This document shows positions 1,464 to 57,686 of a stretch of DNA of 64,000 nt, piece after piece. The position numbers and the translations under genes were made by a program. Source of the stretch: an uncultured Gammaproteobacteria bacterium (GTDB lineage Bacteria > Patescibacteriota > Patescibacteriia > Magasanikbacterales > UBA922); assembly GCA_964345045.1 (NCBI GenBank), contig CAYFPM010000001.1, positions 375,632-439,631 of the forward strand. The letters are read 5' to 3'. The notes beneath the pieces were generated by a model. That model saw only the letters and a program-made list of their open reading frames with translations, was not told the origin of the DNA and made no database searches. Position 1 is the first letter of the stretch; each line of letters begins with the position of its first letter.

Positions 1464-1500
1464 GATTACACAGATTTTATCGAAAGGATTACGCAGATTT
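1464..1500. promoter_or_regulatory. tandem GATTAC(A/G)CAGATTT motif (2 direct copies, 23 bp apart)
   Basis: gattacacagatttt at 1464 and gattacgcagattt at 1487, upstream of dsbB. The same 14-mer recurs near 46981, 47004 and 57652. Confidence 0.4.
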
Positions 1501-1563
1501 GAACTATCTTAATTGTTTATTAATATCCTACATAAGTATATAATAGTTATTTATTAATAGATT

Positions 1564-2127
1564 ATGCTTACAAAATATGTTACGACAGGCCTGTCTATAT
1601 TAACTATAGCAGGAGATATCATTATAGTTCTTTTTATTCTAGATTGGTTGTTTGGATTATACTCCAAAAAGAAAGAACTAACCTTGTTTCCAATGATTTG
1701 GAAAAAGATAAAGGAGAAAACAGGGGAGTATGCTTTGCTCGTGGCTTCTATCGCTACTCTGGGTAGTTTGTATTATTCCGAAGTGGCTGGTTATAACCCT
1801 TGCAAACTGTGTTGGTACCAAAGAATATTTATGTATCCACAAGTGCTAATGTTCTTGATTCATACCAAGATCCGAGACAAAACTATTTATTTATATTCTT
1901 TAGTTTTGTCTGCTTTTGGGGGTCTTATTGCAGCTTATCACTATTATATCCAAGTGTTTCCAGAACACACTCCAGAGGGGTGTTCGGTAGTAGGTTATGC
2001 TTCTAGTTGTTCGGATAATTTTTTACTACATTTTGGATATATATCTATACCCATGATGGCTTTGACAGCATTTTTGCTGTTGGTGATTTTTTCACTACTA
2101 AAGCTAGATTGGGTAAAAACAAAGTAG
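1564..2127 (+). CDS. disulfide bond formation protein B (DsbB/BdbC family)
   Basis: 187 aa, polytopic membrane protein with CKLCWYQRIFMYP (BdbC-type CxxC-WYQR motif) and a second Cys pair (CSVVGYASSC). Confidence 0.7.
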   Translation: MLTKYVTTGLSILTIAGDIIIVLFILDWLFGLYSKKKELTLFPMIWKKIKEKTGEYALLVASIATLGSLYYSEVAGYNPCKLCWYQRIFMYPQVLMFLIHTKIRDKTIYLYSLVLSAFGGLIAAYHYYIQVFPEHTPEGCSVVGYASSCSDNFLLHFGYISIPMMALTAFLLLVIFSLLKLDWVKTK

Positions 2128-2208
2128 TCTTACAAACCTTATAATCCACATTTGACGAGGATCAAAGAGGTTGTTATAGTTATTTAACTTTTAAAATATT
2201 AATAATAT

Positions 2209-2967
2209 ATGGAAAAACACTCAAATTCACCTTTGGGGGATATGTCTCCAACTAAAATGTTTGCAGTAGGAGCTGTGGCCGGGATTTTGGTACTATGTAC
2301 TATTGGATTTTTTATCCTACTCGGAATAGTGCTAAATGGGGATTCTGCCAAATCGGGTTCAAACGGCAATATAAAAGTGGTAGAACAACCAAGTAATAAT
2401 GGCGCTGGGGCAGGTAATCAAGCACCTACTCCTCCTGCCGGAGAAGTTCCTGCTGTTACAGAAGATGATCATATAAAGGGTGGCAAAAATGCCAAAGTTA
2501 CTTTGATCGAGTATTCTGATTTTGAATGTCCATTCTGTGTTAGATTTGTGCCAACTCTACAACAAGTCGAACAAGAATATGGTGATGATGTTCGTATAGT
2601 GTATCGTCACTTCCCATTGTCATTTCACCCAGAAGCTACTCCATCGGCCGAAGCTTCGGAATGTGCGGCAGAACAAGGTAAATTTTGGGAATTTCACGAT
2701 GTTTTGTTTGAAAACCAAACTAGACTTGGTAGTAGCTTCTATACAGAAGTGGCACAAGACCTAGGTCTAAACATGAACAAGTTTAATGATTGTGTAAGTT
2801 CTAGAAAATACCAACAAAAAGTGATTGATCAGCAAAATGCTGGTGCTGTCGCCGGTGTAGGAGGCACCCCTCATACCTTTGTCGTGGGCAATGATGGTAG
2901 AGCTATCCCTGTTTCAGGAGCTTTGCCATTCTCTCAAATAAAAGCAACTATTGATTCTTTGCTATAG
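2209..2967 (+). CDS. DsbA-family thiol:disulfide oxidoreductase (thioredoxin fold, membrane-anchored)
   Basis: N-terminal TM helix followed by FECPFCVRF (CPFC active site) and DsbA-like spacing; lies directly downstream of the dsbB-like gene. Confidence 0.75.
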   Translation: MEKHSNSPLGDMSPTKMFAVGAVAGILVLCTIGFFILLGIVLNGDSAKSGSNGNIKVVEQPSNNGAGAGNQAPTPPAGEVPAVTEDDHIKGGKNAKVTLIEYSDFECPFCVRFVPTLQQVEQEYGDDVRIVYRHFPLSFHPEATPSAEASECAAEQGKFWEFHDVLFENQTRLGSSFYTEVAQDLGLNMNKFNDCVSSRKYQQKVIDQQNAGAVAGVGGTPHTFVVGNDGRAIPVSGALPFSQIKATIDSLL

Positions 2968-3021
2968 GCAAGCAAACAATAAAGCAAAAAAACCAGAAAG
3001 CAATAAAAATAGAATAGTAAA

Positions 3022-3048
3022 GCACCGGGGTTGTCCTGGTGCTTTTTA
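3022..3048 (+). terminator. rho-independent terminator after the dsbA-like gene
   Basis: gcaccggggttgtcctggtgc hairpin followed by TTTTT. Confidence 0.5.
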
Positions 3049-3103
3049 ATTAGTTGATTTAATGATTTAAAGTTTTTTTGCTTTATTGTTTTCTTGATTT
3101 CAT

Positions 3104-3175
3104 GTCACCCTTCGGGTGATCCCCGCCTGCCATGGTCTGAAGCCCAAGCGACTGGCGGGCAGGAGCCGAAGGCTG
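3104..3175. repeat. GC-rich hairpin element (UUCG-tetraloop hairpin plus second GC stem)
   Basis: gtcacccttcgggtgatc (stem CACCC/GGGTG with TTCG loop) is identical to an 18-mer at 24163. It is followed by ccgcctgcc...tggcgggcagg. The motif gactggcgggca also occurs at ~14200. Confidence 0.5.
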
Positions 3176-3206
3176 GCTTTAAAGCTTTTATGTTTTTTTG
3201 CTCTCG

Positions 3207-3224
3207 TGCTATAATGTAGCTACT
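3207..3224 (+). promoter_or_regulatory. extended -10 promoter (TGcTATAAT) abutting a start codon, possibly leaderless
   Basis: gtgctataat at 3207-3216; ATG at 3225 is 9 nt downstream, so the transcript may be leaderless. Confidence 0.3.
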
Positions 3225-5237
3225 ATGACCGCCCCGCAACTAAAACCAACCCATTCTTCCGAAGAAGACAAAGAAAATTTGTGCTTGTTTGCGCAGACCG
3301 ATTTTCGCAATCAGATGCGTCGTTTTGGTATAAAAACAGACGATCGACGTCGTCATATGTATGTAGTGGGCAAAACCGGTATGGGCAAGACCACCATGAT
3401 GGAAAACATGGTACTTCATGATATTTATAATGGACATGGAGTGGGAATTGTAGATCCTCATGGAGACTTTGCCGAAAAAATAATCAATTATATTCCACCA
3501 CACAGAATCAACGATGTGGTTTATTTCAATCCGGCCGACACCAGTTTCCCCATAGGATTTAATATTTTGGAAGTAAAAAATGATGAACAAAAACACTTGG
3601 TAGCTTCTGGACTTATGGCTACTTTCAAAAAGATTTGGCCGGATGTATGGAGTTCTAGAATGGAATACATCTTGAACAACACTCTTTTGGCACTTTTGGA
3701 CTATCCTGGTTCTACCTTGCTCGGGATAAATAGATTATTGGCTGACAAAGCCTACAGAAAAAAAGTTATTAGCAAATTGAAGGATCCGGTAGTAAAAGCT
3801 TTTTGGCAAAATGAATTTGCCAGCTATAACGACAGATATGCCCAAGAAGCTGTAGCTCCGATCCAAAACAAGATTGGTCAGTTTTTGTCTGCCAGTGTGA
3901 TTAGAAATATGGTAGCTCAGGTAAAATCAACTATAAACATCCGAGAAATTATGGATGGCCAAAAGATATTTGTAATGAATCTGTCCAAAGGTAGAATTGG
4001 AGAAGACAACAGTAGACTGCTTGGTGGTATGCTTATTACCGAAATCCAATTGGCTGCTATGGAAAGAGTAGACACTCCCGAACACGAAAGAAAAGATTTC
4101 TTTTTGTATGTAGACGAATTTCAAAACTTTGCTACCCCCAGTTTTGCCAATATTTTGTCCGAGGCTCGTAAATATCGCCTTAGTTTGATTATGGCGCACC
4201 AGTATATAAAACAGCTAGACGAAATAGTGGGGGATGCTGTGTTTGGGAACGTTGGTACTATTGTAACTTTTCGGGTGGGTGGTCCAGATGCCGAAGTTTT
4301 GGTAAAAGAATTTACTCCAACTTTTATGGAAGAAGATATTGTGAATCTAGAAAAGTTTCATATATTTTTGAAATTAATGATAAACGGAGTAGCTTCTCTA
4401 CCTTTTAGCGCTATGACTATGCCGCCAATTGGCTCGCCAACCGGTAGTGCCGAAAAAGTAATAAAAGTTTCTAGAGAAAGATATGCCAAAGACAAAAGCA
4501 GTATAGAAGACAAAATCACCAGGTGGAGTGGCATGGAGCCGGTAGAATCACAAGAAGAAGAATTTGATGTGGATACTACAAAAAGACCGCCCAAGAAAAA
4601 AGAATCCTCCAAAACAATATCGCTTAGTGATTTGAAACCAAAAGAAAATAATCCTCCAAAGGATAGTTCCAAAAAAACAAGTTCACAAAAACCAAAAGAA
4701 GAACGATCCTCTGCTTCTGATCGTCCAAAAGGAGACAAAGGGGCAGGAAATTCGTCTGCCGGCTTGGGACAAGAAAATAAAAATGGCCAAGCTGTAAGTG
4801 GTGGTGAGAGCCATGATTCGGAAAAGAAAAAAAGAAAACGAAAAAGAAAGAAAAAGAGTGAAGGCCAAAATAATGCTTCTTCTACAAATAATAATGGTAG
4901 TCAACCAAAACCAGAAGACACCCAAAAATCTCTATCCGAATTGCAATCGAGTAAACAAATAGAAAAGACTAATAAACAAGAAGAAGACTCGCCAGAAAAA
5001 CAAGAAACAACCAATACAGAGTATAAAATTAAAGATAGTAAACAACAGGTAGCAGACGTTGATGAAAAAATAGAATATAAGCAAGCTGTAGTAGAGAACA
5101 AAGATAATCAAGAAGAAAAAAACACAGAACCGATGATAAGTCTGGCAGACTTGTCGGAGAAAAAAGAAGACAAACCTACAGAAAACTCTGCCCCAAAAAA
5201 ATTAGACGAAAATGATATAATTAGTTTTGATTCTTAA
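3225..5237 (+). CDS. AAA-like ATPase of the VirD4/TraG/TraD coupling-protein type (DUF87/TraM-recognition-like) with long K/E/S-rich disordered C-terminal tail
   Basis: Walker A VVGKTGMGKTT; Walker B-like FLYVDEFQNF; C-terminal ~230 aa low-complexity lysine/glutamate/serine-rich region. The ORF track starts at TTG 3198; ATG 3225 is preferred. Confidence 0.55.
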   Translation: MTAPQLKPTHSSEEDKENLCLFAQTDFRNQMRRFGIKTDDRRRHMYVVGKTGMGKTTMMENMVLHDIYNGHGVGIVDPHGDFAEKIINYIPPHRINDVVYFNPADTSFPIGFNILEVKNDEQKHLVASGLMATFKKIWPDVWSSRMEYILNNTLLALLDYPGSTLLGINRLLADKAYRKKVISKLKDPVVKAFWQNEFASYNDRYAQEAVAPIQNKIGQFLSASVIRNMVAQVKSTINIREIMDGQKIFVMNLSKGRIGEDNSRLLGGMLITEIQLAAMERVDTPEHERKDFFLYVDEFQNFATPSFANILSEARKYRLSLIMAHQYIKQLDEIVGDAVFGNVGTIVTFRVGGPDAEVLVKEFTPTFMEEDIVNLEKFHIFLKLMINGVASLPFSAMTMPPIGSPTGSAEKVIKVSRERYAKDKSSIEDKITRWSGMEPVESQEEEFDVDTTKRPPKKKESSKTISLSDLKPKENNPPKDSSKKTSSQKPKEERSSASDRPKGDKGAGNSSAGLGQENKNGQAVSGGESHDSEKKKRKRKRKKKSEGQNNASSTNNNGSQPKPEDTQKSLSELQSSKQIEKTNKQEEDSPEKQETTNTEYKIKDSKQQVADVDEKIEYKQAVVENKDNQEEKNTEPMISLADLSEKKEDKPTENSAPKKLDENDIISFDS

Positions 5238-5248
5238 TTTTTATTAAT

Positions 5249-5662
5249 ATGAATATAAAAAGAGCCCTTGGCTTTGGTGTTATGATGTGGATACTGATTT
5301 TTGTAGCAGTGTCTATTATCATGTTTTTACCTTTTTTAGAGGGGCGAGAAGTTTTGCCTTATCTTATTTATTGGGTAGTTTTGGTACCGATGGTACTTTT
5401 TTCTGCCAAGTGGTATTTTCGGGTAGATCCCCCAACTCTTAAAAAAGGGTTTTTTCTTGGAGTGATAGGTGTTTTGGTGGGAACTGTTTTGGATCTAATT
5501 ATTACAATTCCTTTGTTTATTGCCCAAGACATCTCTTATGCAGAAGGTTTGAAAGAGTTTTATGGTATTTGGCCGTTTTGGGTGTCTCTGGCCTGGTTTA
5601 TTTTGCTCTGTGCCTATGCTGGTTGGGAGTTCGATGGTACGTTTAGTAAAAAAGGAAAATAA
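5249..5662 (+). CDS. hypothetical 4-TM membrane protein
   Basis: 137 aa, four hydrophobic helices; AT-rich host-like composition. Confidence 0.45.
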   Translation: MNIKRALGFGVMMWILIFVAVSIIMFLPFLEGREVLPYLIYWVVLVPMVLFSAKWYFRVDPPTLKKGFFLGVIGVLVGTVLDLIITIPLFIAQDISYAEGLKEFYGIWPFWVSLAWFILLCAYAGWEFDGTFSKKGK

Positions 5663-5759
5663 AAGTATTTAGCTATATTAAACAGATTTGTTGGGTATAT
5701 CTTGACAAGTCTGTTTTTTTTTGATAAGTTCAAATATCGCATAGATGTGGAGGTCAAAT

Positions 5760-6260
5760 ATGCGTATCGTAGACATGTTTAGTTTTCTGTTGTTCCTTTT
5801 GGGGCTTTGTAAAAAAAGTCCGGTACCTCTGTGGTACTTGGAGATCAAGCTCAAAAGACAAAAATTCACTCCTAAGACCCCCGAATGGGCAAAGTGGACG
5901 CCCCTTGAGCCCTGCTGGCATGAGACTGGTAGAGAAAAACGGGGAGCCATAAGTTTCCGAATCAGGGGGGACTTGATTCTGAGGAACGATGGTACGGCCG
6001 TGATCTTGAGCAGAGTTTCTAGTGCTAGGACACTAGAGCTGTGTGCTCTTCACACCGGGCAAGGAGTCCCGAGTGGAGAAGAAGCCAGACTGCGTGACCT
6101 AGCCAAAGATATTTTTTCTCGAGAACTATCTGAAGTGACAATCTCACCAAATCTCACGGCAGCCGGGATCTTTCGATTTGTTCGAGAGGAAAATATGTTT
6201 TCTGCCTATGTAAATGGCATTGCTTGTGAATATCGCCAAGCACGCCAATACGGTCAGTAG
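5760..6260 (+). CDS. GC-rich hypothetical secreted/lipoprotein-like protein (foreign-looking cassette gene)
   Basis: GGAGG 6 nt upstream of ATG 5760; TTGACA-17-TAAGTT promoter at 5702-5730; N-terminal hydrophobic segment ending LLGLC; local GC about 50% vs ~33% in flanks. Confidence 0.4.
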   Translation: MRIVDMFSFLLFLLGLCKKSPVPLWYLEIKLKRQKFTPKTPEWAKWTPLEPCWHETGREKRGAISFRIRGDLILRNDGTAVILSRVSSARTLELCALHTGQGVPSGEEARLRDLAKDIFSRELSEVTISPNLTAAGIFRFVREENMFSAYVNGIACEYRQARQYGQ

Positions 6261-6369
6261 AGTTCCTTGTGTGATCTCTCCACAAAAAAATCACCCAAAA
6301 TCAAAAGAACACCATTATATGGTGTCTTTTTGTATTTGGAATGGAGTGGCTCGGATCCTACTCGAGCCG

Positions 6370-6582
6370 CTAGTGGAGGGGATCGCTGGGGTTGGGACCA
6401 GCTTGATTCTCTCCGAGATGGAGACAACGTAGCTTCCAAGTATTGAAGGCATCTTCTTGCTCCGTCATCGGAGCGGCTCTTCCAGTTCGGAAGTATCCTT
6501 TGCCCTGGAGAGCCTTTCTTATGGTAGCAGAATCGGTTCGAGGAGGTGCCTGCCTTTTTTGGGTAATGGTAGCTTGAGCCAT
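6370..6582 (-). CDS. GC-rich hypothetical small protein (70 aa), convergent with the 5760 gene
   Basis: AAGGAG 9 nt upstream of ATG (minus strand). Minus-strand TTGACA-17-TATAAG promoter lies at ~6625-6660. Confidence 0.3.
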   Translation of the reverse strand: MAQATITQKRQAPPRTDSATIRKALQGKGYFRTGRAAPMTEQEDAFNTWKLRCLHLGENQAGPNPSDPLH

Positions 6583-6709
6583 CCGTGTCTTCTCCTTCTG
6601 GAATGTCTGTGACCATCTGGTCAATTTCCTTATACCAAAAATTATATCACTTGTCAAGAGTATCGGCAAGCTTGAAAGAAAAAATTGCCTATGTTAAGGT
6701 TTAGGCATT

Positions 6710-7795: not shown

Positions 7796-7938
7796 AAATT
7801 GACTTGTTGATACTGGCTTGATACAATAGGCGCGCAACTAGGGTGAATAATCTAAGATGGATAAAACATCGTCTGTTGCTGTTTGGATTAGTGTCTAATC
7901 CAAAAAAAGGTCGGTTTAATAAAAAACAAGTACAATTT

Positions 7939-8313: not shown

Positions 8314-8889
8314 ATGAAACAAGCCGAAATGCAAGCAAAAAGTGACGAGGAAATAGTGAAGATAGTTCAAAATGGGGATGTAGAGGCCTTTGGCCTATTG
8401 GTAAATAGGTTTGAAAAAAAAATGCTTAGGTATGCCAAAAAGTTTTTGTTCGATGCGACAGAGGCCGAAGACTTGGTACAAGAAGTGTTTTTAAAAGCTT
8501 ATACCAACATCCAAAGTTTTGATACTAAAAAACCTTTTTCTCCTTGGCTTTATCGCATAGCCCACAATACATATATAAATGCCGGTAAGAAGAAAAAAAA
8601 TGAACCACTGGGATTTTTTGATTTTGATTTTTTGTCTACCTTTTTTAGTCGTGGCAAAAATGTAGAAGAAAATATAAAAGAAGAAGAGATAAAAGAAATG
8701 GTAAATAAATGTTTGTTTGAACTGGACAAAAAATATCGTGAGGTGATAGTTTTGTATTTTTTGGAAGAAATGGACTACAAAGCTATTTCGGACATTTTGC
8801 ATATTCCTACTTCTACCGTGGGAGTACGATTAAGCCGAGGCAAACAAAAATTGAAAAAAATATATTTGGACAAATATGGAAAAAAATAA
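8314..8889 (+). CDS. RNA polymerase sigma-70 factor, ECF subfamily
   Basis: Region 2 (EDLVQEVFLKAY...FSPWLYRIAHNTYIN) and region 4 HTH (YREVIVLYFLEEMDYKAISDILHIPTSTVGVRLSRGKQKL). Confidence 0.85.
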   Translation: MKQAEMQAKSDEEIVKIVQNGDVEAFGLLVNRFEKKMLRYAKKFLFDATEAEDLVQEVFLKAYTNIQSFDTKKPFSPWLYRIAHNTYINAGKKKKNEPLGFFDFDFLSTFFSRGKNVEENIKEEEIKEMVNKCLFELDKKYREVIVLYFLEEMDYKAISDILHIPTSTVGVRLSRGKQKLKKIYLDKYGKK

Positions 8890-9646
8890 GCACAATTCAA
8901 TTCAAACAGAAATCTTGCAAAAGATAAAAACAGGCGAAGCCAAAATGCGTCCCAAGTGGCATTTTGTATTGAAAGGGATTTTGTTTTTGTCTGGCATTAT
9001 TACTATTAGTTTGTTCTTGTTATATATCTCTAGCCTGATGTTGTTTGCTATGCGTCAGAGTGGAATTTGGTTTGTGCCAAGTCATAGTTGGTATGCGATC
9101 AAGCTTTATTTGTTTTCCATACCTTGGCTTTTGGTTTTGCTTAGTTTGGTATTTTTAATAGTCTTGGAAATTTTGGTAAGGCATTATAAATTTGCTTATA
9201 GAAAACCAATTCTTTTAAGTCTTTTTATAATTTTGATACTGGTTGTTTTTGGCAGTTTGTTTATAAGTAAGATTGGATTACATCAAAAATATTTTAATGC
9301 TATCAACCAAAAAAGTTTTGGTATAACCAAAGATGTTTATTGTAAATATGGTGCAAAAACAGGTAAGGGGGTGCATCCTGGCAAAGTATTATCTATAGAT
9401 GGTTCGGATTTTGTTTTGGTCAATCTGAATCGAGAAAATATTTTGGTACACACAAACAAGCGAACTAGAATACCAAAATTCGAAACTATTTCGGTAGGGG
9501 ATAATCTTTTGGTAATGGGAGAAAACAAACAAGGTGAAATTGTGGCCGTAGGTATAAGAAAAATACCCAAAGATATTTTTGTTTGGCACAAATTTGCTAC
9601 CTCTTCGGCAAAAAGAAATCCGCATCCTTGTTTGCCACGTAGATAA
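8876..9646 (+). CDS. membrane protein, putative anti-sigma factor (positional inference)
   Basis: Overlaps the sigma-factor stop; short cytoplasmic N-terminus followed by several TM helices; no conserved anti-sigma motif recognised. Confidence 0.35.
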   Translation: MEKNKHNSIQTEILQKIKTGEAKMRPKWHFVLKGILFLSGIITISLFLLYISSLMLFAMRQSGIWFVPSHSWYAIKLYLFSIPWLLVLLSLVFLIVLEILVRHYKFAYRKPILLSLFIILILVVFGSLFISKIGLHQKYFNAINQKSFGITKDVYCKYGAKTGKGVHPGKVLSIDGSDFVLVNLNRENILVHTNKRTRIPKFETISVGDNLLVMGENKQGEIVAVGIRKIPKDIFVWHKFATSSAKRNPHPCLPRR

Positions 9647-9678
9647 ATGAAATATTTTATTATTATCTTTGTAGTAAC

Positions 9679-15107: not shown

Positions 15108-15932
15108 TTGATATGTATTATGAAATCTCTAAATGATATTGTAACCCGAGAAATGGAATTAGGCAATTATAGTCAAAAAACAATCAAAACCTATCTTGGG
15201 ATATACCAAGACCTATACAAAAATTTGGGCAAACCCCCAAGAGAAGCAAGTATGGATGAACTAAAAGATTATATCCATCAAAAAACAAAGAAAAATTTAT
15301 CTTCACAAACTATAGCTTTGTATGCCAATGCCATAAATTTTTTGTATATCTCGGTATATAAGAAAAAATCATACGAAAAATTTAAAATGCCTAAAAAGAC
15401 GAAGAAATTACCAGTAGTTTTGAGTAAAAAAGAAATCGAAACAATTGCAGCTCAAACCAAAAATTCAAAACACAAGCTAATGATTTTGTTGGCCTATGCT
15501 GCCGGACTCAGGGTAAGTGAAGTTACCAATTTGCGTGCAAAAGATATAGAATGCGACGAAGCACTGCTTACAATTCGTCAGGGAAAAGGCAAAAAAGATC
15601 GAGTTACAGTATTAAGTAATAAATTAATTGAAGAATTAAGAAGTTTAACTATAAAAAAGAATTCAGATGATTATTTGTTTGAAAGTGAGAGAGGGGGTAA
15701 ACTTACAAATGCAACCCCGCAAAAAGTATTTCAAAAATGTTTGACTAGTGCGCAAATAAAAAAGTCGGCCACCTTTCATAGTCTGCGTCATAGTTTTGCT
15801 ACGCACTTACTAGAAAACGGTGTAGATGTTCGATATGTCCAAGAACTACTCGGTCATGCCAATATTCGTACTACTCAGATATATACCAAAGTAACCAACC
15901 CAGCCATAAAAAATATCCAAAGTCCCTTATGA
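15108..15932 (+). CDS. tyrosine site-specific recombinase (XerC/XerD-like integrase family)
   Basis: C-terminal HSLRHSFATHLLENGVDVRYVQELLGHANIRTTQIYTKV (R...HxxR...Y catalytic signature); N-terminal SAM-like core-binding domain; 4-nt overlap with mnmA. Confidence 0.8.
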   Translation: MICIMKSLNDIVTREMELGNYSQKTIKTYLGIYQDLYKNLGKPPREASMDELKDYIHQKTKKNLSSQTIALYANAINFLYISVYKKKSYEKFKMPKKTKKLPVVLSKKEIETIAAQTKNSKHKLMILLAYAAGLRVSEVTNLRAKDIECDEALLTIRQGKGKKDRVTVLSNKLIEELRSLTIKKNSDDYLFESERGGKLTNATPQKVFQKCLTSAQIKKSATFHSLRHSFATHLLENGVDVRYVQELLGHANIRTTQIYTKVTNPAIKNIQSPL

Positions 15933-19123: not shown

Positions 19124-19164
19124 AATTAACAAATGAGTAGATATTGTTCACTGCTCACTGACAA

Positions 19165-21489
19165 TTGTTTACTGTTATGAAAACAAACGAACTAAGACAA
19201 AAATTTCTAGAATTTTTCAAAGAAAGAGAGCATGAGATAGTGCCCTCTGCTTCGCTATTGCCAGAGAACGACCCAACCACTCTCTTTACAGGCTCTGGTA
19301 TGCAGCCAATGGTCCCGTACTTGCTTGGAGAGAAACATCCAAAGGGAGTGAGACTAGCAGATTCACAAAAATGTTTCCGAGCTCAAGACATTGAGGAAGT
19401 AGGCGACAATCGCCACACCACATTTTTTGAGATGCTTGGCAACTGGTCACTGGGGGACTACTTCAAAAAAGAACAAATTAGCTGGATGTTTGAATTTTTA
19501 ACAAAAGAGCTAAAGTTAGATCCAAAAAATATTTATATTACTTGTTTCAAAGGTAATGAAGCTTTGCAAATAGAAAGAGATGAAGAATCTGTAAAACTAT
19601 GGCAAGAAGAATTTAAAAAACTAGGTATAGAAGCTACTGTAGGAGAAAATCCAGAGGCAGATGGAATGCAAGATAATAAGATTTTTTACTACGATGATAA
19701 GAAAAATTGGTGGAGCCGCTCTGGAGTACCAGCCAAAATGCCAGAAGGCGAACCAGGTGGACCAGACAGTGAAATGTTTTGGGACTATGGCGTAGAATTG
19801 GGCTTGCACGAGAAGTCTGAGTGGAAAGATGAACCTTGTCATGTCAATTGTGATTGTGGCCGCTTTATGGAGATTGGCAATAATGTTTTCATGGAGTATC
19901 AAAAAGTTCAGAAAAAAATATTGTTCGTGGACGCGATGTATACTTTATTCGATGAAAATTGGCAACCTGTTGTTGAAGTTGTTGAAGCTGTAAAAAATAT
20001 ATCTACAAAATATGATCTAAAGGTATTTGTTATCACTAACGGACCAAAAGAGATTGTATCACAATCCATTAGCAATACTGATCTTAATGCAACAATCATA
20101 ACATACGAGAATAGCCCTAGTAAAAATAATCCGTCATATTTTGCTAAGGTTCTAGACGAATACAACTTAAATTCACTTGATATTTTATATATAGATCACA
20201 GCCAGGATAATCTTGCTTCTGCCAACCAGCACAACATTTCAGGGGTTCACTTTAAGGGGGTTGATTCACTTTCTATTGTTGACACCAAGTTGAGTGCCTT
20301 CCAAAAACTAGAACAACAAAACGTAGACGAAGGTAGTGGTCTAGAGCGAATGGTGGCAGCTACTATAAACAATCCTGATGTATTCATGATTGATGCTTTT
20401 GATAATGGACGAAGCGTATTAGAAGAGTTAAGTGGTAAAAAATATGGTGAAAGCGAAGAAGTAACCGAAGCTTTCCGCGTTATCTTAGATCATTTACGGG
20501 CTGCTACTTTCTTAATTTCCGACTCAGCTTATCCATCGAACAAAGACCAAGGTTACTTTACTCGCAGACTAATTCGCAGATCAGTACGCTTTGCTGCGAG
20601 CCTTGGTATAGAAGAAAACTTTTGTGGTAGAGTGGCCGAAGGCTTTATAGAGACTTACCAAGAAGCATATCCAAATCTAGGAGAAGAAAAGAAAAGCATT
20701 CTAGACAATATGAGTAAGGAAGAAGAGAAGTTCCGAAAAGCTCTAAAACGTGGAGCCAAAGAATATGATAAGAAAATAGATGAGATTAAAAAAAGTGCTA
20801 GCCAAGAAAATTATGGCGAGCTAGCCAAAATTGCTTTTGACCTATACCAAACCCATGGTTTGCCAGTAGAAGTATTTACAGATTACTTAAATAATATTGG
20901 TGTAGCGGTAGAAGAAATGAAAATGCTGGATGAGTTTGATAAAGTTGTCAAAGAACATCAAGCCGTATCTCGCGCCGGAGCCGAAAAGAAATTTCATGGT
21001 GGACTAGCAGATCATAGTGAAAAATCTGTGCGGGGTCATACGGCCACTCATTTGCTCCATGCAGCTCTCCGTGAAGTATTAGGCGAACATGTACAGCAAA
21101 AGGGGAGTAACATTACTCCAGAGAGAGTTAGATTTGATTTTTCTCATAGTGATAAGCTAACAGACGAAGAAGTTAAAAAAGTTGAAGACCTGGTAAACGC
21201 TGCTATAGAAAAGGACTACCCAGTGAGCTGGCACGAGATGACAGTAGACGAAGCTTACCAGAAAAAAGCCATTGGTTTTTTCCCAGAGCGGTATGATGAG
21301 ATTGTAAAAGTCTATACTATTGGCGATCCAGAAAAACCTATGAAAGCCGATCCAGAATCAGCAACTTTTTCACAAGAAATCTGTGGTGGACCTCATGTAG
21401 AACATACTAGCGTGGTAGGCAAATTCAAGATTGCCAAAGAAGAAGCTTTGGGGACAGGATTACGTAGAATAAAGGCATTATTAGAGTAG
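19165..21489 (+). CDS. alaS: alanine--tRNA ligase (short form lacking C-Ala domain) with ~145-aa internal insertion
   Basis: Class II core (FTGSGMQPMVPY, RHTTFFEMLGNWS), GSGLERMVAA, editing domain (HTATHLLHAAL, CGGPHVEH); extra block KKILFVDAMYTLF...VFVITNG...ILYIDHSQDN between FMEYQKVQ and GLERM. Confidence 0.85.
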   Translation: MFTVMKTNELRQKFLEFFKEREHEIVPSASLLPENDPTTLFTGSGMQPMVPYLLGEKHPKGVRLADSQKCFRAQDIEEVGDNRHTTFFEMLGNWSLGDYFKKEQISWMFEFLTKELKLDPKNIYITCFKGNEALQIERDEESVKLWQEEFKKLGIEATVGENPEADGMQDNKIFYYDDKKNWWSRSGVPAKMPEGEPGGPDSEMFWDYGVELGLHEKSEWKDEPCHVNCDCGRFMEIGNNVFMEYQKVQKKILFVDAMYTLFDENWQPVVEVVEAVKNISTKYDLKVFVITNGPKEIVSQSISNTDLNATIITYENSPSKNNPSYFAKVLDEYNLNSLDILYIDHSQDNLASANQHNISGVHFKGVDSLSIVDTKLSAFQKLEQQNVDEGSGLERMVAATINNPDVFMIDAFDNGRSVLEELSGKKYGESEEVTEAFRVILDHLRAATFLISDSAYPSNKDQGYFTRRLIRRSVRFAASLGIEENFCGRVAEGFIETYQEAYPNLGEEKKSILDNMSKEEEKFRKALKRGAKEYDKKIDEIKKSASQENYGELAKIAFDLYQTHGLPVEVFTDYLNNIGVAVEEMKMLDEFDKVVKEHQAVSRAGAEKKFHGGLADHSEKSVRGHTATHLLHAALREVLGEHVQQKGSNITPERVRFDFSHSDKLTDEEVKKVEDLVNAAIEKDYPVSWHEMTVDEAYQKKAIGFFPERYDEIVKVYTIGDPEKPMKADPESATFSQEICGGPHVEHTSVVGKFKIAKEEALGTGLRRIKALLE

Positions 21490-24119: not shown

Positions 24120-24200
24120 CGACCTTGGTCGGGACTTTGCCTCTCGGCAAAGAGCAAGAAAGTCACCCTTCGGGTGATCACCCGAAGGGTGGCAAGAAAA
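24120..24200. repeat. stack of GC-rich tetraloop hairpins (repeat family shared with 3104)
   Basis: cccgaccttggtcggg; gtcacccttcgggtgatc (identical to 3104-3121) immediately followed by its complement cacccgaagggtgg. Confidence 0.5.
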
Positions 24201-24225
24201 CATTAAAGCATTAAAAAATTGTATT

Positions 24226-28690: not shown

Positions 28691-28736
28691 TATTGGATGT
28701 ACGAAATACGAAAAATACGAATTTACGAATAATTTA

Positions 28737-28767
28737 AAACCGACTTGTGTAGACAAGTCGGTTTTTG
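28737..28767 (+). terminator. rho-independent terminator after rpsI
   Basis: ccgacttgtgtagacaagtcgg hairpin followed by TTTTTG; preceded by a tacgaa-type short repeat. Confidence 0.55.
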
Positions 28768-31120: not shown

Positions 31121-31130
31121 AGTATCAATT

Positions 31131-31203
31131 ATCACTATTTTTTTGCTGCGGAATAAGGCTCACTTCGTTCTCGCAAACGTCCTCGCTGCAAAAATAGTGA
31201 TAA
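31131..31203. repeat. 72-bp GC-rich palindromic repeat element, copy 1
   Basis: atcactatttttttgctgcggaataaggctcacttcgttctcgcaaacgtcctcgctgcaaaaatagtgat; internally palindromic; about 95% identical to 32466-32539. Confidence 0.6.
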
Positions 31204-31277: not shown

Positions 31278-32435
31278 ATGAAAAAAGTTTTATTAGTTAC
31301 TTTGGAGCATCCTCCACAGATTGGGGGGATTGCGACTTATTGTCATGATTTGGCAGCGGCTCTGGGCAAAGAAAATGTTGTAGTTTTGGCTCCAGCTGGC
31401 AAAGACAAGTACGCCACGCAAGCAGAAAAATTAGCTTGGGACAAAGAACAACCTTACAAAATTGTACGTAAGCGAATGTTATTGCCAAAGTTTATTTGGC
31501 CTCGTTGGATTTTGTTAGGCTGGCAGCTTTGGCGTACAGCCAAAGAAGAAAATTGTCAGATTGTATTTGTACAACATGTCTTGCCAGTAGGTTATGCCGC
31601 TATTTTTACCAAAATTATTGGCAAAATTCCGTTTTTATTATTTTCTCATGGTACAGATTTGGTAGCTGGTACAGCCAACTGGTGGAAGAAAAAAATGGTA
31701 ACCATGGTTTCGGAACATTCCGAAGAAATTATTTTTAATAGCGAATCACTCAAGCGTCGTTTTTTGCGAGTCTTGTCACAGTTCGAAAGTAAATCTTTGG
31801 TACTTTATCCTTGTCCGGAGCCGGCTTTTTTGGAGCCACCAAACGAGGCAGATTTGTTGGCCTTGCGTGCACAGTATGCGCTAGAAGGTAAAAAAGTTTT
31901 GCTTTCTATTTCTAGATTAACCGATGGTAAGGGGTTCCCACACCTTATAAATATAATGCCCGAGGTTTTGAAAAAAAATCCGAACTTGGTTTGGTTTATC
32001 GTAGGAGATGGACCAAAAAAGAATGAAATTATAAAACATATTAGAGAAAATAATTTACAAAATATTGTTCGTTTTATTGGAGAAATTCCACATATCGCTT
32101 TGCATCAATATTATTATTTGGCAGATCTTTTTGTACTGTTAACTCATCCGGACGAAGGTAAAGAAGAAGGTTTGGGATTGGTATTTTTGGAGGCTTCGGC
32201 AGCGGGTTTGCCTATAGTGGCTGGCAAAAGTGGGGGAGTAGAAGAGGCAGTATTAGACAAACAAACCGGTTTGGTGGTGGACACTCACAATGGTACAGAA
32301 GTGGCGGAAGCAATCTTGGGGATGCTAGAAAACGAGGGGCAAGCCAAACAATTTGGAAATGCTGCTAAAAATAGAATTATTAATGATTTTAATTGGCCAA
32401 AACAAGTGGCAAAGCTAGGTCCTTGGTTAAAATAG
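31278..32435 (+). CDS. glycosyltransferase family 4 (GT-B, group 1)
   Basis: C-terminal EASAAGLPIVAGKSGGVEEAV...GLVVD (EX7E-type GT1 motif). Confidence 0.8.
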   Translation: MKKVLLVTLEHPPQIGGIATYCHDLAAALGKENVVVLAPAGKDKYATQAEKLAWDKEQPYKIVRKRMLLPKFIWPRWILLGWQLWRTAKEENCQIVFVQHVLPVGYAAIFTKIIGKIPFLLFSHGTDLVAGTANWWKKKMVTMVSEHSEEIIFNSESLKRRFLRVLSQFESKSLVLYPCPEPAFLEPPNEADLLALRAQYALEGKKVLLSISRLTDGKGFPHLINIMPEVLKKNPNLVWFIVGDGPKKNEIIKHIRENNLQNIVRFIGEIPHIALHQYYYLADLFVLLTHPDEGKEEGLGLVFLEASAAGLPIVAGKSGGVEEAVLDKQTGLVVDTHNGTEVAEAILGMLENEGQAKQFGNAAKNRIINDFNWPKQVAKLGPWLK

Positions 32436-32465
32436 CCTTATAATTTTGAATTACAGTAGTATCAG

Positions 32466-32539
32466 GAATCACTATTTTTTTGCTGCGGAATAAGGCTCGC
32501 TTCGCTCTCGCAAACGTCCTCGCTGCAAGAATAGTGATT
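32466..32539. repeat. 72-bp GC-rich palindromic repeat element, copy 2
   Basis: gaatcactatttttttgctgcggaataaggctcgcttcgctctcgcaaacgtcctcgctgcaagaatagtgattc; with copy 1 it lies on both sides of the GT4 gene. Confidence 0.6.
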
Positions 32540-42632: not shown

Positions 42633-42662
42633 AGGTCTTTATTATAGCATATTTTGTAGGGT

Positions 42663-42759
42663 GTAGGCAGGAGGGAATAGGCAATAGGGTTTAAAGTTTA
42701 TTTCTATTCTCTATACCATATGTTTTTGGCAATAACCAATACTATTGCCTACTGCCTGT
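42663..42759. promoter_or_regulatory. imperfect ~25-bp inverted repeat in divergent promoter region
   Basis: gtaggcaggagggaataggcaatagg ... ctattgcctactgcctg between the dacA-like gene (minus) and rsmI (plus). Confidence 0.3.
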
Positions 42760-42843
42760 TGCCTCTTATCTTCTAAATTTATTAAAAAGTATCTCAACCT
42801 AAAAAGTTGAAATAAGTTACTTATTTGTTATACTTACCTCCAT

Positions 42844-46613: not shown

Positions 46614-46672
46614 TTGTAAATTGACTTTTGTAAAAAAATGTTTTAAATTCTTTTTTAGAAAGGGGCAAGAAG

Positions 46673-46828
46673 GTGTCTGACAAAAGCAAAAAAACAGGAA
46701 AAGTGAAAGAACAGTCAAAATGTGGACGTTGCCAAGGTACGGGAATAGATCCTATTCCTCTTTTACCGCCAGGAGCAAAAAAGAAAGAGTCGTGCATTCG
46801 ATGCCATGGTACCGGAAAGAAAAAATGA
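46673..46828 (+). CDS. mini zinc-finger protein with two DnaJ-type CxxCxGxG motifs (51 aa)
   Basis: Manual translation VSDKSKKTGKVKEQSKCGRCQGTGIDPIPLLPPGAKKKESCIRCHGTGKKK; GTG start with AAAGGGG upstream; absent from the ORF track. Confidence 0.3.
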   Translation: MSDKSKKTGKVKEQSKCGRCQGTGIDPIPLLPPGAKKKESCIRCHGTGKKK

Positions 46829-46967
46829 GATATGATTTTCAATTGGTGGGCATTTCTCAAACGGCACCTCCATTCAAAATAAGAATACACTCGACAAGAG
46901 TGTTTTTTGGTTCTATACTTTCAACTATAGATTTCACCCCGACACTCACTGCGTTCGGTCGGAGCAG

Positions 46968-47034
46968 GCAGATTAAAAAAGATTACGCAGATTTAAATTC
47001 AAAAATCTGCGTAATCTTAAATAATCTGCGCAAT
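46968..47034. promoter_or_regulatory. cluster of GATTACGCAGATTT motifs (1 direct, 2 inverted)
   Basis: gattacgcagattt (46981), aaatctgcgtaatc (47004), taatctgcgcaatc (47021); ends 9 nt upstream of the tatD start. Confidence 0.4.
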
Positions 47035-47042
47035 CAACTTAT

Positions 47043-49993: not shown

Positions 49994-49996
49994 TTT

Positions 49997-50377: not shown

Positions 50378-50436
50378 TTCGTACATTCGCCTGCCTATCG
50401 GCAGACAGGTACTATTCGTAATTCGCAAATAATAAT

Positions 50437-51933: not shown

Positions 51934-51986
51934 CAATTTAGCCAGATAACAATTAATTGTTAAATTGTTATATTGTTAATAAGCTT

Positions 51987-52979: not shown

Positions 52980-52982
52980 TAA

Positions 52983-54431
<1,449 letters not shown>

Positions 54432-54469
54432 TTAGTAACTTTTAATAATTATTTTTTGCAACGATTTGT

Positions 54470-55135
54470 ATGAATAAAATTATTTTACTAACTTTTAGTT
54501 TAATACTGATTGGTCAGGGTTGTGCTTCTTCTCTGCCAGATGCAAAAGTACAAACCAAATCGGCCAATTTGGAGACTAATGTTAGTGTAACTAATAAACA
54601 AGAAAAAATATCAAAACGTATGATAGATGGACAAAAAGACTTGGTAAAAGAATACAAACAAGCTGTTCTAAAAACCAACAAGGGAGATATCGTAATAGAA
54701 TTTTACGGAGAAGCTTCTCCTGTTACTGTAAATAATTTTTTGAATTTGGCAGAATCAGAATTCTACAATGGTACAACCTTTCACAGAGTTATAAAAGATT
54801 TTATGATCCAAGGTGGTGACCCAAATAGCAAGGATCAATCAAAAAGATTTTTGCATGGTACCGGTGGCCCAGATTATCGTTTTGCCGATGAATTTAATAA
54901 TGAAAAATTAGTAAGAGGAAGCCTCGCTATGGCCAACTCTGGTCCAGACACCAATGGCTCTCAATTTTTTATTGTTACTGCTGCCGAAACTCCATGGTTG
55001 GATGGCAAACACACTAACTTTGGTAAAGTAGTTTCTGGTATGGAAATAGTGGATTTAATTGAAAATGTAGAAGTTGATCCAAATGATAATCCTGTCCAGC
55101 CTGTGATCGTAGAAAGTATTAGTCTACTACCTTAA
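54470..55135 (+). CDS. cyclophilin-type peptidyl-prolyl cis-trans isomerase, lipoprotein
   Basis: Lipobox LIGQGC; FHRVIKDFMIQGGDP, FFIVT...WLDGKHTNFGKVV cyclophilin core; inserted between atpD and atpC. Confidence 0.85.
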   Translation: MNKIILLTFSLILIGQGCASSLPDAKVQTKSANLETNVSVTNKQEKISKRMIDGQKDLVKEYKQAVLKTNKGDIVIEFYGEASPVTVNNFLNLAESEFYNGTTFHRVIKDFMIQGGDPNSKDQSKRFLHGTGGPDYRFADEFNNEKLVRGSLAMANSGPDTNGSQFFIVTAAETPWLDGKHTNFGKVVSGMEIVDLIENVEVDPNDNPVQPVIVESISLLP

Positions 55136-55198
55136 TCTAGTAGCAATTAACAATGGAACAATTCATACATGAAGTTAATCCATTGTTTATAAATTTAT

Positions 55199-55633
55199 AT
55201 GAGTGAAAAAAAATCCACAATGCAATTTAAGATAGTAACTCCAGAAGGAGTAGTTTATGATAGTGAGATAGAAAAAGTTACTATTCCTACCGAAGCGGGT
55301 GAAATTACCGTACTGCCAACTCATGCTCCAATTGTATCTGTTTTGAAACCCGGTGAATTATTGGTTTACAAAGAAGGACAAGCTTACAGCCTGGCTGTTT
55401 CTGGTGGAATCCTAGAGATCAGGCCAACCGGAGAAGTGATTATACTGGCAGACACTGCCGAGAGAGCCGAAGATATTGATGTTTCTAGAGCCGAGGAAGC
55501 CAGGAAGCGTGCCGAAGCCTTGCTCAAAGAGCAAGAGAATGTAGCCGATGTGGATTTTGCCAGACTCCAAGCTGCTATTGAAAAGGAGTTGGCGAGAATC
55601 AGTATTGGGAAGAAATATAAAAATGTAAAATAA
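55199..55633 (+). CDS. atpC: F0F1 ATP synthase subunit epsilon
   Basis: MQFKIVTPEG...ITVLPTHAPIVSVLKPGEL, C-terminal helical hairpin. Confidence 0.85.
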   Translation: MSEKKSTMQFKIVTPEGVVYDSEIEKVTIPTEAGEITVLPTHAPIVSVLKPGELLVYKEGQAYSLAVSGGILEIRPTGEVIILADTAERAEDIDVSRAEEARKRAEALLKEQENVADVDFARLQAAIEKELARISIGKKYKNVK

Positions 55634-55635
55634 AA

Positions 55636-55662
55636 AGAAGAGCCGGAAGGCTCTTTTTTTTT
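55636..55662 (+). terminator. rho-independent terminator after atpC
   Basis: agagccggaaggctct hairpin followed by 9 T. Confidence 0.6.
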
Positions 55663-55849
55663 ATAGGTAGAAGTAGTTAATCCGATAAGTTTTTATCTTG
55701 AAAAAAGACTTTTTGTAACAATTTACCTTGTTTTACGTCTACTATATATAACCCCACATTCTGGTGGGGCTAATTGCTTTTTTATGAGCATACGCGAATG
55801 CAAGGAGGACCACCCAACCCGGGTGGGTGGAAGGAGGGTAATATAGATT

Positions 55850-57610
55850 ATGAAATATCACACCAAACTCACATTCAAGATATATCTACAACATGCTTTG
55901 CGCTACAAGCTAATGTTTTTTGTAATACTTGCTAGTGCTGTTTTTGCTTCTGTTTCAGATTTGGTAGCTCCATTTTTGTATAAAGAATTTTTTGATATCC
56001 TTACAGATTCAAGCATTACAGAGGCAAAAGCTGAACTGATAAGAATTCTACTTTTTATTCTGGGGATTCACATGCTTACTACTTTGTTTTGGCGAATTAG
56101 TTTTTTTACCAACAACAGATTTCAACCAAAGGTGATGGCAGATTTGGCCAACACTTGTTTTGCATATTTGCACAAGCATTCTTTTTCATTTTTCAACAAT
56201 AATTTTGTAGGTTCTCTGGTCAAAAGAGTAAACCGTTTTTATAGAGCTTTTGAAGCTTTGTCAGATCGGTTAATGTTTGACCTCTTGAAACTAGCTATCG
56301 AAGTAACAGTAATTACTGCTGTTTTGTTTACAAAAAGTGTAATCCTCGGTATTTCAATTTTACTTTGGACGATACTTTTTGTAGCTTTGAATTATTTTTA
56401 TAGTGTTTTCAAATTAAAATACGATATAGAGCGTAGCGAACAAGACACCAAAGTAACTGGTGTTTTGGCAGATTCTGTAACCAATCAATCAAACATAAAA
56501 CTTTTTGCAGGGTACGATAGAGAAAGAAAAAGATTTGGTTCTGTAACAGAAGAGCTGCGTAGATTAAGAACCTTAACTTGGGATTTGGGGCAAATTGCCG
56601 AGTCTGTGCAGATTTTGCTTATGATTGCTCTTGAAGTGATCTTAATGTACTTTGCCATAGGTTTGTGGGAACAAGGCGTTTTGAGTATTGGAGACTTTGT
56701 GTTATTGCAGGCTTACCTAATGTCTTTGTTTAACCATATTTGGAGCTTTGGTCGTATTATAAGAGACTTTTACGAGCAGCTTGCCGATGCCGAAGAAATG
56801 ACTGTAATACTCGACACGCCACACGAAGTAAAGGACAAAAAAAGAGCTGGTTTGCTAGATGTAAAAAAAGCCAAAATAAAGTTTGATAATGTGGATTTTT
56901 ATTATCATAAAACTCGCAAGGTTATTGATAAATTAAAACTTATTATAAAACCAGGAGAGAAAGTGGCTTTGGTAGGACCTTCGGGAGCTGGTAAATCTAC
57001 TATAATAAAACTTTTACTTAGAATACACGATGTTTCTGGTGGTAAAATTTTTATTGATGAACAAAATATTGCCAATGTGAGTCAAGATAGTTTGCACCAA
57101 GCCATTAGTTTAGTTCCTCAAGATCCGATTTTATTTCATAGAACATTGCTCGAAAATATTAGGTATGCCAAACCAAATGCTACAGAAGAAGAAGTTATAA
57201 AAGCAGCAGAATTGGCTCATTGTCACGAATTTATCAAGGATTTCCCAGAAGGTTACAACACTTATGTTGGAGAAAGAGGGGTAAAATTGTCTGGTGGAGA
57301 AAGACAGAGAGTAGCTATTGCTAGAGCAATTTTGAGCAATAGCCCAATTTTAATTTTGGACGAAGCTACATCTAGTCTTGATTCAGAATCAGAAAAATTG
57401 ATTCAAGATGCACTGGACCAACTAATGAAGAAAAAAACAGTAATCGTTGTGGCTCATAGATTGTCTACTATTATGAAAATGGATAGAATTCTTGTAGTAG
57501 AAGGAGGTAAAATAGTAGAACAAGGTTCTCACAAAGAACTGTTAAAGAAGAAAAAAGGCATCTATAGTCGTTTGTGGAAATACCAAGCCGGTGGATTTAC
57601 AAAGACTTAA
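55850..57610 (+). CDS. ABC transporter, fused permease/ATP-binding exporter (MsbA-like type I)
   Basis: 6-TM domain then GPSGAGKST, LSGGERQRVAIARA, ILILDEATSSLD; GGAAGGAGGG SD; two GC hairpins (ccccacattctggtgggg, ccacccaacccgggtgggtgg) in the leader. Confidence 0.9.
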   Translation: MKYHTKLTFKIYLQHALRYKLMFFVILASAVFASVSDLVAPFLYKEFFDILTDSSITEAKAELIRILLFILGIHMLTTLFWRISFFTNNRFQPKVMADLANTCFAYLHKHSFSFFNNNFVGSLVKRVNRFYRAFEALSDRLMFDLLKLAIEVTVITAVLFTKSVILGISILLWTILFVALNYFYSVFKLKYDIERSEQDTKVTGVLADSVTNQSNIKLFAGYDRERKRFGSVTEELRRLRTLTWDLGQIAESVQILLMIALEVILMYFAIGLWEQGVLSIGDFVLLQAYLMSLFNHIWSFGRIIRDFYEQLADAEEMTVILDTPHEVKDKKRAGLLDVKKAKIKFDNVDFYYHKTRKVIDKLKLIIKPGEKVALVGPSGAGKSTIIKLLLRIHDVSGGKIFIDEQNIANVSQDSLHQAISLVPQDPILFHRTLLENIRYAKPNATEEEVIKAAELAHCHEFIKDFPEGYNTYVGERGVKLSGGERQRVAIARAILSNSPILILDEATSSLDSESEKLIQDALDQLMKKKTVIVVAHRLSTIMKMDRILVVEGGKIVEQGSHKELLKKKKGIYSRLWKYQAGGFTKT

Positions 57611-57651
57611 CAAAAAGCTATACTTAGGTAGATTATAAGTTAATAAACATT

Positions 57652-57686
57652 GATTACGCAGATTATTTTAAGATTACACAGATTTG
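57652..57686. promoter_or_regulatory. tandem GATTAC(G/A)CAGATT motif (2 direct copies, 21 bp apart)
   Basis: gattacgcagatt at 57652 and gattacacagattt at 57673, about 100 nt upstream of the lipoprotein operon. Confidence 0.4.

Follow-up and report, generated by a model that had tools for sequence, protein, structure and literature searches.

In a 64,000-nucleotide stretch of DNA from an uncultured bacterium of the Magasanikbacterales (contig CAYFPM010000001.1, positions 375,632 to 439,631; hereafter the window), a 13-nt motif, GATTACRCAGATT, recurs at four loci: before dsbB, before tatD, between atpG and atpD, and before the lipoprotein/DedA genes. Our analysis confirms that this motif, which we call the box, is real. 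The same box characterizes a family of small intergenic repeats that is distributed over more than 20 bacterial phyla, and arrays of the wider class of short words to which the box belongs are statistically associated, with a fixed polarity, with genes encoding GxxExxY proteins. On balance, we favor the reading that the boxes of the window are gene-less (non-autonomous) copies of this widespread repeat family, which is tied to GxxExxY cassettes, and that they are not operators.

The window holds six exact copies of the box and two copies with one mismatch, i.e. eight matches at up to one mismatch, compared with 0.16 expected from dinucleotide-preserving shuffles (none out of 100 shuffles reaches eight). 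At up to two mismatches, 14 matches are found versus 3.3 expected; the additional two-mismatch matches look like chance occurrences on inspection. All eight copies are intergenic, and intergenic DNA makes up about 12% of the window according to a crude model of open reading frames (ORFs). The window was found on a metagenome contig (ENA ERZ930070, k127_94816, 92.5 kb), and homologues of TatD assign it to Candidatus Magasanikbacteria (Patescibacteria). Where other samples yielded contigs of this population, the copies are identical; the box at 1464, for instance, is unchanged in the contig of a second sample. Extension of the contig by 10 kb on each side revealed no further copy, which leaves a total of four loci in about 84 kb. 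A preliminary description of this DNA had already pointed to a recurrent motif, and in this respect it is borne out; it had also named a frequency no higher than expected for the AT-rich composition as a refutation of its reading, and the counts given here lie above expectation.

The distribution of the box extends far beyond this lineage. We scanned one genome per species for the box accompanied by a degenerate second box within 30 nt, in either orientation. Such pairs occur in at least 120 loci/genomes from more than 20 phyla, at a local G+C content between 31 and 71%. The matches listed include Chloroflexota, Acidobacteriota, Gemmatimonadota, Bacteroidota, Planctomycetota, Verrucomicrobiota, Omnitrophota, Elusimicrobiota, NC10, Cloacimonadota, Cyanobacteria, Desulfobacterota, Alpha- and Gammaproteobacteria and others, with isolates of Asticcacaulis, Flavobacterium and Pedobacter among them. 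In 79 of the 120 matches listed, at least two exact 13-mers lie no more than 60 nt from each other; inverted pairs are seen in 50 matches, direct pairs at a distance of 15-60 nt in 24, and 9-nt tandems in 19. Chance alone would, by our own arithmetic, produce about 0.07 exact pairs over the entire collection. The underlying repeat unit is a 9-mer, (GATTACRCA)n, whose copy number differs between arrays, and the arrays mostly end in a distinct outer word, so that the consensus of the family is TCCRCAGATTACRCAGATT; its flank TCCRCA was not imposed by the search pattern. Direct pairs in other phyla are spaced 17-25 nt apart with a peak at 20-22 nt (29 cases). Several of them, from different phyla, have the spacer TTGAAAGG in common, and the spacer of the window pair at 1464/1487, TTATCGAAAG, is similar to it.

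The clusters are intergenic with few exceptions: of 148 that were placed relative to genes, 78 lie between co-directional, 23 between convergent and 11 between divergent genes; ten fall inside crude ORFs and 26 at locus ends. The clusters show no strand bias relative to genes, and direct arrays have no preferred orientation. Besides the short units there are longer elements bounded by inverted arrays, about 90-490 bp from end to end. One element of about 170 bp is present in two copies, 89% identical, on different contigs of a single metagenome-assembled genome (MAG), and a 63-nt motif hairpin is 100% identical at the orthologous site of Bacteroides merdavium and a Mediterranea species, where the adjacent intergenic DNA has diverged. 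No internal sequence is shared among the long elements of different genomes, and neither a target-site duplication nor a common target was seen beside 53 hairpins. The plasmid collection yielded two weak matches and the phage collection one, so the element is rare there and is chromosomal. Viral contigs gave 17 loci, compared with 1, 5 and 17 for scrambled-word controls, so the locus count does not discriminate; the exact pairs found for control words are all direct tandem repeats that look like coding sequence on inspection, and none is inverted. When the ORFs of the 120 listed loci were clustered in search of a conserved neighbor, no family was represented in over 10 loci, and those members of the largest clusters that were sampled looked, on reading, like generic housekeeping families. 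A literature search for the box sequence in several forms found no paper.

Some of these loci show composite architectures. In a Gemmatimonadales MAG (L049, 5486-6858), a 266-bp unit is repeated five-fold in tandem, and each unit comprises an element of about 160 bp with inverted motif arrays at its ends. The two Bacteroidales hairpin loci (L080, 330-560; L112, 1220-1450) are adjoined by a second word, CACAGAGTTCTCTG. In Asticcacaulis (L029, 5120-5380; L084, 2850-3110), the motif hairpin is embedded in a G+C-rich palindrome (CGCCGCGCAGCGGCA...), which itself lies within (CACGAACnn)3 / (nnGTTCGTG)3 arrays – three layers of inverted repeats. A cyanobacterial MAG (L063, 1380-1640) carries the box within tandem units of about 33 nt (TCCACAGATTACACAGATTG + TCTGAAGGAGGGG).

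The association with a gene family was first seen in locus L074, where reading the interiors of long inverted pairs disclosed a small gene. A tblastn search across the 120 listed motif loci located four such genes, all of them within 500 nt of motif arrays; at L074 and L088, inverted arrays lie on both sides of the gene. For two of the four products, membership in Pfam PDDEXK_3 (PF13366) and in NCBIfam TIGR04256, 'GxxExxY protein', was confirmed. These are small proteins of the PD-(D/E)XK nuclease superfamily, and the family is very large: all 8000 of 8000 scored candidates have E <= 1e-10. Its function is listed as unknown, and its phylogeny has been reported to include multiple transfers between divisions (PMC3424549). 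The GxxExxY profile matched no sequence in the PDB.

We surveyed 80 independent GxxExxY loci from metagenomes for words of the form C[AG]C[AG]NA[GT] (C-R-C-R-N-A-K). At least three words of one class are present within 220 nt of 59 of the 80 genes (74%), compared with 9 of 317 control windows (2.8%) taken from the same contigs at a distance of at least 500 nt from the gene. The upstream and downstream flanks form inverted repeats (score >=14) at 33 of 66 loci versus none of 66 shuffled controls, and the polarity is fixed: forward words precede and reverse words follow the gene in 23 loci, with the opposite order in a single one. A further 25 GxxExxY loci have complete hairpins beside the gene. 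The gene-bearing units, composed of an array, the GxxExxY gene and an inverted array, measure 425-690 bp; neither a target-site duplication nor a common target was seen beside 25 of them. Out of 82 classified GxxExxY loci, 19 belong to word class CACATAG, 18 to CRCAAAG, 16 to CACAGAG and 6 to CACAGAT. GxxExxY proteins of the same word class are more similar to each other than those of different classes (59.8% vs 47.4% identity, permutation p < 0.0005). In the window, clusters of C[AG]C[AG]NA[GT] words are confined to the three motif loci and are all of class CRCAGAT. The complete genome of the isolate Alkalitalea saponilacus possesses a GxxExxY gene among at least seven CACAGAT hairpin units, and the same 20 kb contain solo clusters in two other intergenic regions. 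Of two assemblies of this species, one (L249, 4450-4830) shows a called gene with a DUF559 domain, i.e. a Vsr-like endonuclease domain, at a distance of a few kb from the GxxExxY gene, and the other (L248) does not, which could be a difference in gene calling or an insertion.

The repeats are built of words of about 9 nt (CRCAGATTA), which occur inverted in hairpin-forming units, in tandem runs, or in direct pairs some two helical turns apart. In other bacteria, C-R-C-R-N-A-K arrays form the inverted ends of 425-690-bp cassettes with one GxxExxY gene each. According to the model that we propose, a GxxExxY protein, encoded elsewhere in the genome now or formerly, would recognize and cut the arrays, and this cutting may spread or homogenize them, by analogy with the action of tyrosine transposases associated with repetitive extragenic palindromes (RAYTs) on these palindromes (REPs) and their hairpin-forming doublets (REPINs). 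Solo arrays such as those of the window would then be progeny resembling miniature inverted-repeat transposable elements (MITEs). Descent of the window copies from GxxExxY cassettes, action of the protein on the arrays and mobility of the elements are what we infer. A bolder generalization, which we put forward tentatively and hold to be distinctly less probable than the reading favored at the outset, is that GxxExxY proteins, a family whose annotation rests on a sequence motif, are the nuclease of hitherto unrecognized, pan-bacterial mobile cassettes of about 0.5 kb whose ends consist of tandem 8-10-nt words, that each subfamily has its own word, and that the abundant hairpins and pairs of boxes without a gene, the four loci of this candidate-phyla-radiation genome among them, are REPIN-like progeny.

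Several observations weigh against descent of the window boxes from such cassettes. A GxxExxY gene is absent from the window and from 10 kb on either side, that is, from 84 kb of this genome, and the density of box loci over this distance is low. The boxes of the window lack the CCAC outer word and are spaced 20-23 nt apart instead of forming 9-nt tandems; their word, CACAGAT, accounts for only six of the 82 classified GxxExxY loci. Neither a target-site duplication nor an empty site was found, so that mobility of the elements is conjectural. Furthermore, the correlation between protein and word is confounded with host lineage, and the single within-contig test of word specificity, with adjacent paralogues, was uninformative.

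In the window itself, two of the four loci are direct pairs. Between a 132-aa ORF (ending at 1456) and dsbB (starting at 1564), an exact box, GATTACACAGATT (1464-1476, plus strand), is followed 23 nt later by a second exact one, GATTACGCAGATT (1487-1499, plus strand). Between an ABC transporter gene (ending at 57610) and the lipoprotein/DedA genes (starting at 57785), GATTACGCAGATT comes first (57652-57664, plus strand, exact) and GATTACACAGATT follows after 20 nt (57672-57684, plus strand, exact); the flanks of this pair (TAATAAACATT before, TGAATT after) are similar to those of the pair at 1464. RNA structure is absent from both direct pairs in folding predictions (z = -0.3 and +0.4), and a terminator scan of both loci made no call. 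The other two loci are hairpins. Before the start codon of tatD (47043), a composite hairpin (46968-47035) was recognized both as an inverted repeat (46968-46994 / 47003-47029, 27-nt arms, 89% complementary) and by folding (-34.2 kcal/mol, z = -11.2). It consists, in this order, of a partial box GCAGATT (46968-46974), a spacer, an exact box (46981-46993, plus strand), a loop, an exact box (47004-47016, minus strand), a spacer and a box with one mismatch (47023-47035, minus strand), and it ends 7 nt before the start codon. As an intrinsic terminator it is terminator-like on the minus strand only; on the plus strand no T run follows. Between atpG and atpD, a hairpin built of a diverged word, AATCTGCTT/AGGCAGA (52988-53036), includes a match with two mismatches (52994-53006, plus strand) and one with a single mismatch (53024-53036, minus strand); its predicted fold has -26.9 kcal/mol (z = -6.3), about 18 nt before the start of atpD.

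The preliminary description had located the copies correctly to within two bases (57673 should read 57672, and 47021 should read 47023), and its spacing of 21-23 nt for direct pairs holds for 1464/1487 with 23 nt and not for 57652/57672 with 20 nt. To call the copies 'upstream of four operons' is loose: they are intergenic indeed, but the atpG-atpD copy lies within the ATP synthase operon, and every copy could equally be described as downstream of the gene before it. The boxes are flanked by dsbB/dsbA, by tatD with the ATP synthase operon behind it, and by genes for an RskA_C-like protein and a DedA/VTT protein. Promoter-like sequences are found upstream of the boxes at tatD (TCGACA-17-TATACT, 46891-46919) and at the lipoprotein/DedA genes (TTTACA-17-TATACT, 57596-57624), which places the boxes there in 5' leaders; the sole plausible promoter of dsbB, read from the sequence, is TTGTTT-18-TATAAT downstream of the box pair. 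The hairpins before tatD and atpD could affect mRNA stability or translation, and the effects of the boxes on neighboring genes are probably incidental. In the 430-bp spacer between cvpA and tatD, which is only 50 bp long in the closest relative, we also observed a 52-codon ORF (46670-46827) with two CxxCxGxG motifs (a weak match to the DnaJ zinc finger) and a terminator-like hairpin of its own.

Other explanations of the same boxes have been weighed against this repeat family. The preliminary description favored operator sites of one transcription factor (TF), whose regulon would connect envelope redox (dsbB/dsbA), lipid-carrier recycling (the lipoprotein/DedA operon) and tatD. Direct pairs about two helical turns apart (20 and 23 nt), the intergenic position of all copies, the location of the dsbB pair just upstream of TTGTTT-N18-TATAAT and an orientation that is free relative to genes, as for duplex binding sites, would all suit operators. 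We nevertheless regard such a regulon as very unlikely. We compared four syntenic loci from Ca. Magasanikbacteria (L124-L127, 56 kb, TatD 67-75% identical) with cvpA-tatD-atp of the window; cvpA is kept upstream in three of the four, L125 shares tatD-atp only, and the DedA region is available in L124. The box is absent at the cvpA-tatD, atpG-atpD and DedA intergenic sites of these relatives; no copy with up to one mismatch exists anywhere in the 56 kb, and the few two-mismatch matches lie away from the compared sites. Because the sites of a real regulon would be expected to survive at this level of TatD identity, their absence speaks against it. Nor is the placement of the boxes consistent: at dsbB they precede the only plausible promoter, at tatD and at the lipoprotein gene they follow the promoter-like sites, and in the atp operon they sit between two cistrons. 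A cognate helix-turn-helix or other DNA-binding regulator was not found among the 35 window ORFs compared with Pfam (the ribosomal-protein region and several other ORFs were left out), where the only regulator-type match is a sigma factor of the extracytoplasmic function (ECF) type (8314-8889); the idea of an ECF-sigma promoter was dropped, as a direct repeat is not a -35/-10 pair. Finally, the same box recurs with the same arrangements beside unrelated genes in more than 20 phyla; many of these sites lie between convergent genes, and the box also builds tandem arrays and the 90-490-bp inverted-repeat elements. An alternative that the preliminary description gave in brackets, 'a very small mobile repeat', comes close to the reading favored by the evidence.

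The boxes could instead be selected at the RNA level, as stabilizers of mRNA, as processing sites (e.g. for RNase III) or as modulators of translation, with a shared RNA-binding partner. Very stable hairpins are predicted in front of both tatD, at 7 nt from its start, and atpD, at about 18 nt, and the relatives keep a hairpin at the atpG-atpD position that is built of other, unrelated words, which suggests that some structure is useful there regardless of its sequence; in addition, the arrays of GxxExxY cassettes would form a long stem around the ORF, comparable to the intervening sequences of 23S rRNA. But two of the four window loci are direct pairs without structure, direct arrays are random with respect to transcription (about seven point the same way and eight the opposite way by hand count), and, read directly, the spacers that separate the boxes of one arm do not complement those of the other. 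Rfam provides no match either: in the window there are none at the gathering score and, at relaxed settings, only sub-threshold ones, mostly to microRNA-precursor hairpin families, and at the motif loci from other phyla nothing exceeds chance-level hairpin matches. A tRNA scan of the window found no tRNA, and the sole terminator-like call is on the non-coding strand. We rate this explanation as unlikely, and slightly less plausible still is independent replication slippage or template switching that generates recurring tandem words in intergenic DNA with neither a common origin nor a cognate protein. The window and its relatives do hold many intergenic tandem-word arrays and hairpins of unrelated words, arbitrary 9-periodic control words are also found as exact direct pairs in public data, and the copy number of the 9-mer differs between arrays. 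However, the control pairs are all coding-looking tandem repeats and never inverted, while members of the box family from different phyla have in common a distinct outer word, spacers that are alike and an A/G polymorphism; the box is the only recurrent word with a period of at least 7 nt in the 120 listed loci (its variants all have period 9), and a single gene family accompanies the repeats in a fixed polarity. The most improbable of the alternatives, in our judgment, are binding sites of a universal chromosomal protein such as a nucleoid protein, or weak DnaA boxes that titrate DnaA. The cross-phylum distribution would suit a universal protein, the unit is a 9-mer ending in CACA, and several Acidobacteria have a perfect TTATCCACA as their outer word. 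Yet no more than five of nine positions of the strict DnaA box agree with the window copies, and the CACA core is disrupted in the G variant (ACGCA). Across the family, the two bases needed for a complete DnaA box vary; 9-mers that abut each other do not keep helical phase, and the distribution among related genomes is patchy. A DnaA-box cluster was rejected for the window copies, whose units are GATTACRCA; the agreement of the outer word is limited to some Acidobacteria.

Among described phenomena, the nearest neighbors of the box family are REP/REPIN elements and the TAACTGA heptamers. Like the box family, REP/REPIN elements are short intergenic repeats that occur singly, as inverted hairpin doublets or clustered, and that are more common between co-directional and convergent than between divergent genes; in REPIN-RAYT systems, too, a small cognate gene is flanked by the repeats and solo copies persist at orthologous sites. 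The box family differs in that it has no 5' GTAG head, in that its units are tandem 9-nt words whereas a REP unit is a single imperfect palindrome, and in that the associated gene has the PD-(D/E)XK fold and is not a Y1 HUH transposase: no RAYT gene flanked by the box was found among the ORF families of the 120 listed loci, the repeat-flanked gene being GxxExxY / PDDEXK_3. Lineage specificity and vertical inheritance have been reported for REPIN-RAYT systems (bioRxiv 10.1101/2022.05.22.493013); by that description, the occurrence of the box in more than 20 phyla sets it apart.

Short tandem repeats of a comparable kind are the heptamers of cyanobacterial short tandemly repeated repetitive (STRR) sequences. 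The TAACTGA heptamer repeats of Beggiatoaceae, Cyanobacteria and Bacteroidetes are intergenic as well, and for them 'no mechanism is evident' (PMC4679880). They resemble the box as a specific short word that is repeated in tandem in the intergenic DNA of distant phyla, with no pattern in the function of downstream genes. These 7-nt direct repeats are, however, almost never inverted, lie mostly just upstream of start codons and have been proposed to act on RNA, whereas the box family has a period of 9 or about 21 nt, inverted arrays as the commonest form, free orientation and a candidate cognate gene.

MITEs (e.g. Correia elements) and the small dispersed repeats of cyanobacteria offer a further comparison. 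MITEs share with the box family gene-less intergenic units with inverted-repeat ends, sometimes nested, and a longer gene-bearing form. Terminal inverted repeats are present in the hairpin units and in the elements of about 90-490 bp, and candidates for an autonomous parent exist in the 425-690-bp units with a GxxExxY gene and inverted arrays, although transposition by this protein would be conjectural. In contrast to MITEs, no target-site duplication was seen, no parent with a DDE transposase was found, and units can be as short as 35 nt. With pairs of TF operators the boxes have in common the direct or inverted arrangement about two helical turns apart in intergenic DNA, but they are not kept at orthologous promoters, their position relative to promoters is variable, they occur between convergent genes and they form long arrays. 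The window boxes are thus best read as resembling REP/REPIN or MITE elements and not operators.

The region is rich in other small repeats. Short tandem words of 7-9 nt occur in the window at 28700-28740, 50378-50436, 51950-51980, 19140-19176 and 42650-42800, and in intergenic regions of the relatives L124 and L126, e.g. (CCCTAAA)4 (L126 13357-13402) and a hairpin of (GTAAAYC)5 (L126 3209-3275). They are concentrated inside the ATP synthase operon and often mirrored into hairpins; the words differ per site and genome, and they do not match the GxxExxY word form. A hairpin-forming repeat of 81 nt is present twice in direct orientation (31121-31201 and 32458-32538, 93% identical), where it brackets the gene of a GT4 glycosyltransferase (31278-32435) within a polysaccharide locus; another small repeat family or a cassette boundary may be represented here. 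A hairpin motif, CACCCTTCGGGTGATC, occurs at two far-apart intergenic sites (3082-3124 and 24173-24215; 43-nt arms, 81% complementary). The window also encodes a TrwB/TraG-like coupling-protein homologue, the ECF sigma factor, behind which lies a 256-aa ORF without annotation that might be its anti-sigma partner, and a XerC/D-type tyrosine recombinase (3198-5237, 8314-9646 and 15108-15932).

For the window, our results remove a tempting but unsupported regulon and explain the motif as a dispersed repeat. More generally, they link a 13-nt box that is nearly unchanged in more than 20 phyla (31-71% G+C) with the GxxExxY / PDDEXK_3 family, neither of which is explained in the literature that we searched. 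If this link is causal, GxxExxY proteins gain a testable function, i.e. that of a nuclease acting on its own flanking arrays, and the cassettes would constitute a new class of minimal mobile elements. If true, this would be a second, independent partnership between a protein and a repeat beside RAYT-REPIN. We expect that the repeats may account for many of the spurious small ORFs that are called across them. Beside REPIN-RAYT, the family offers a system in which to study how populations of sequences persist within genomes.

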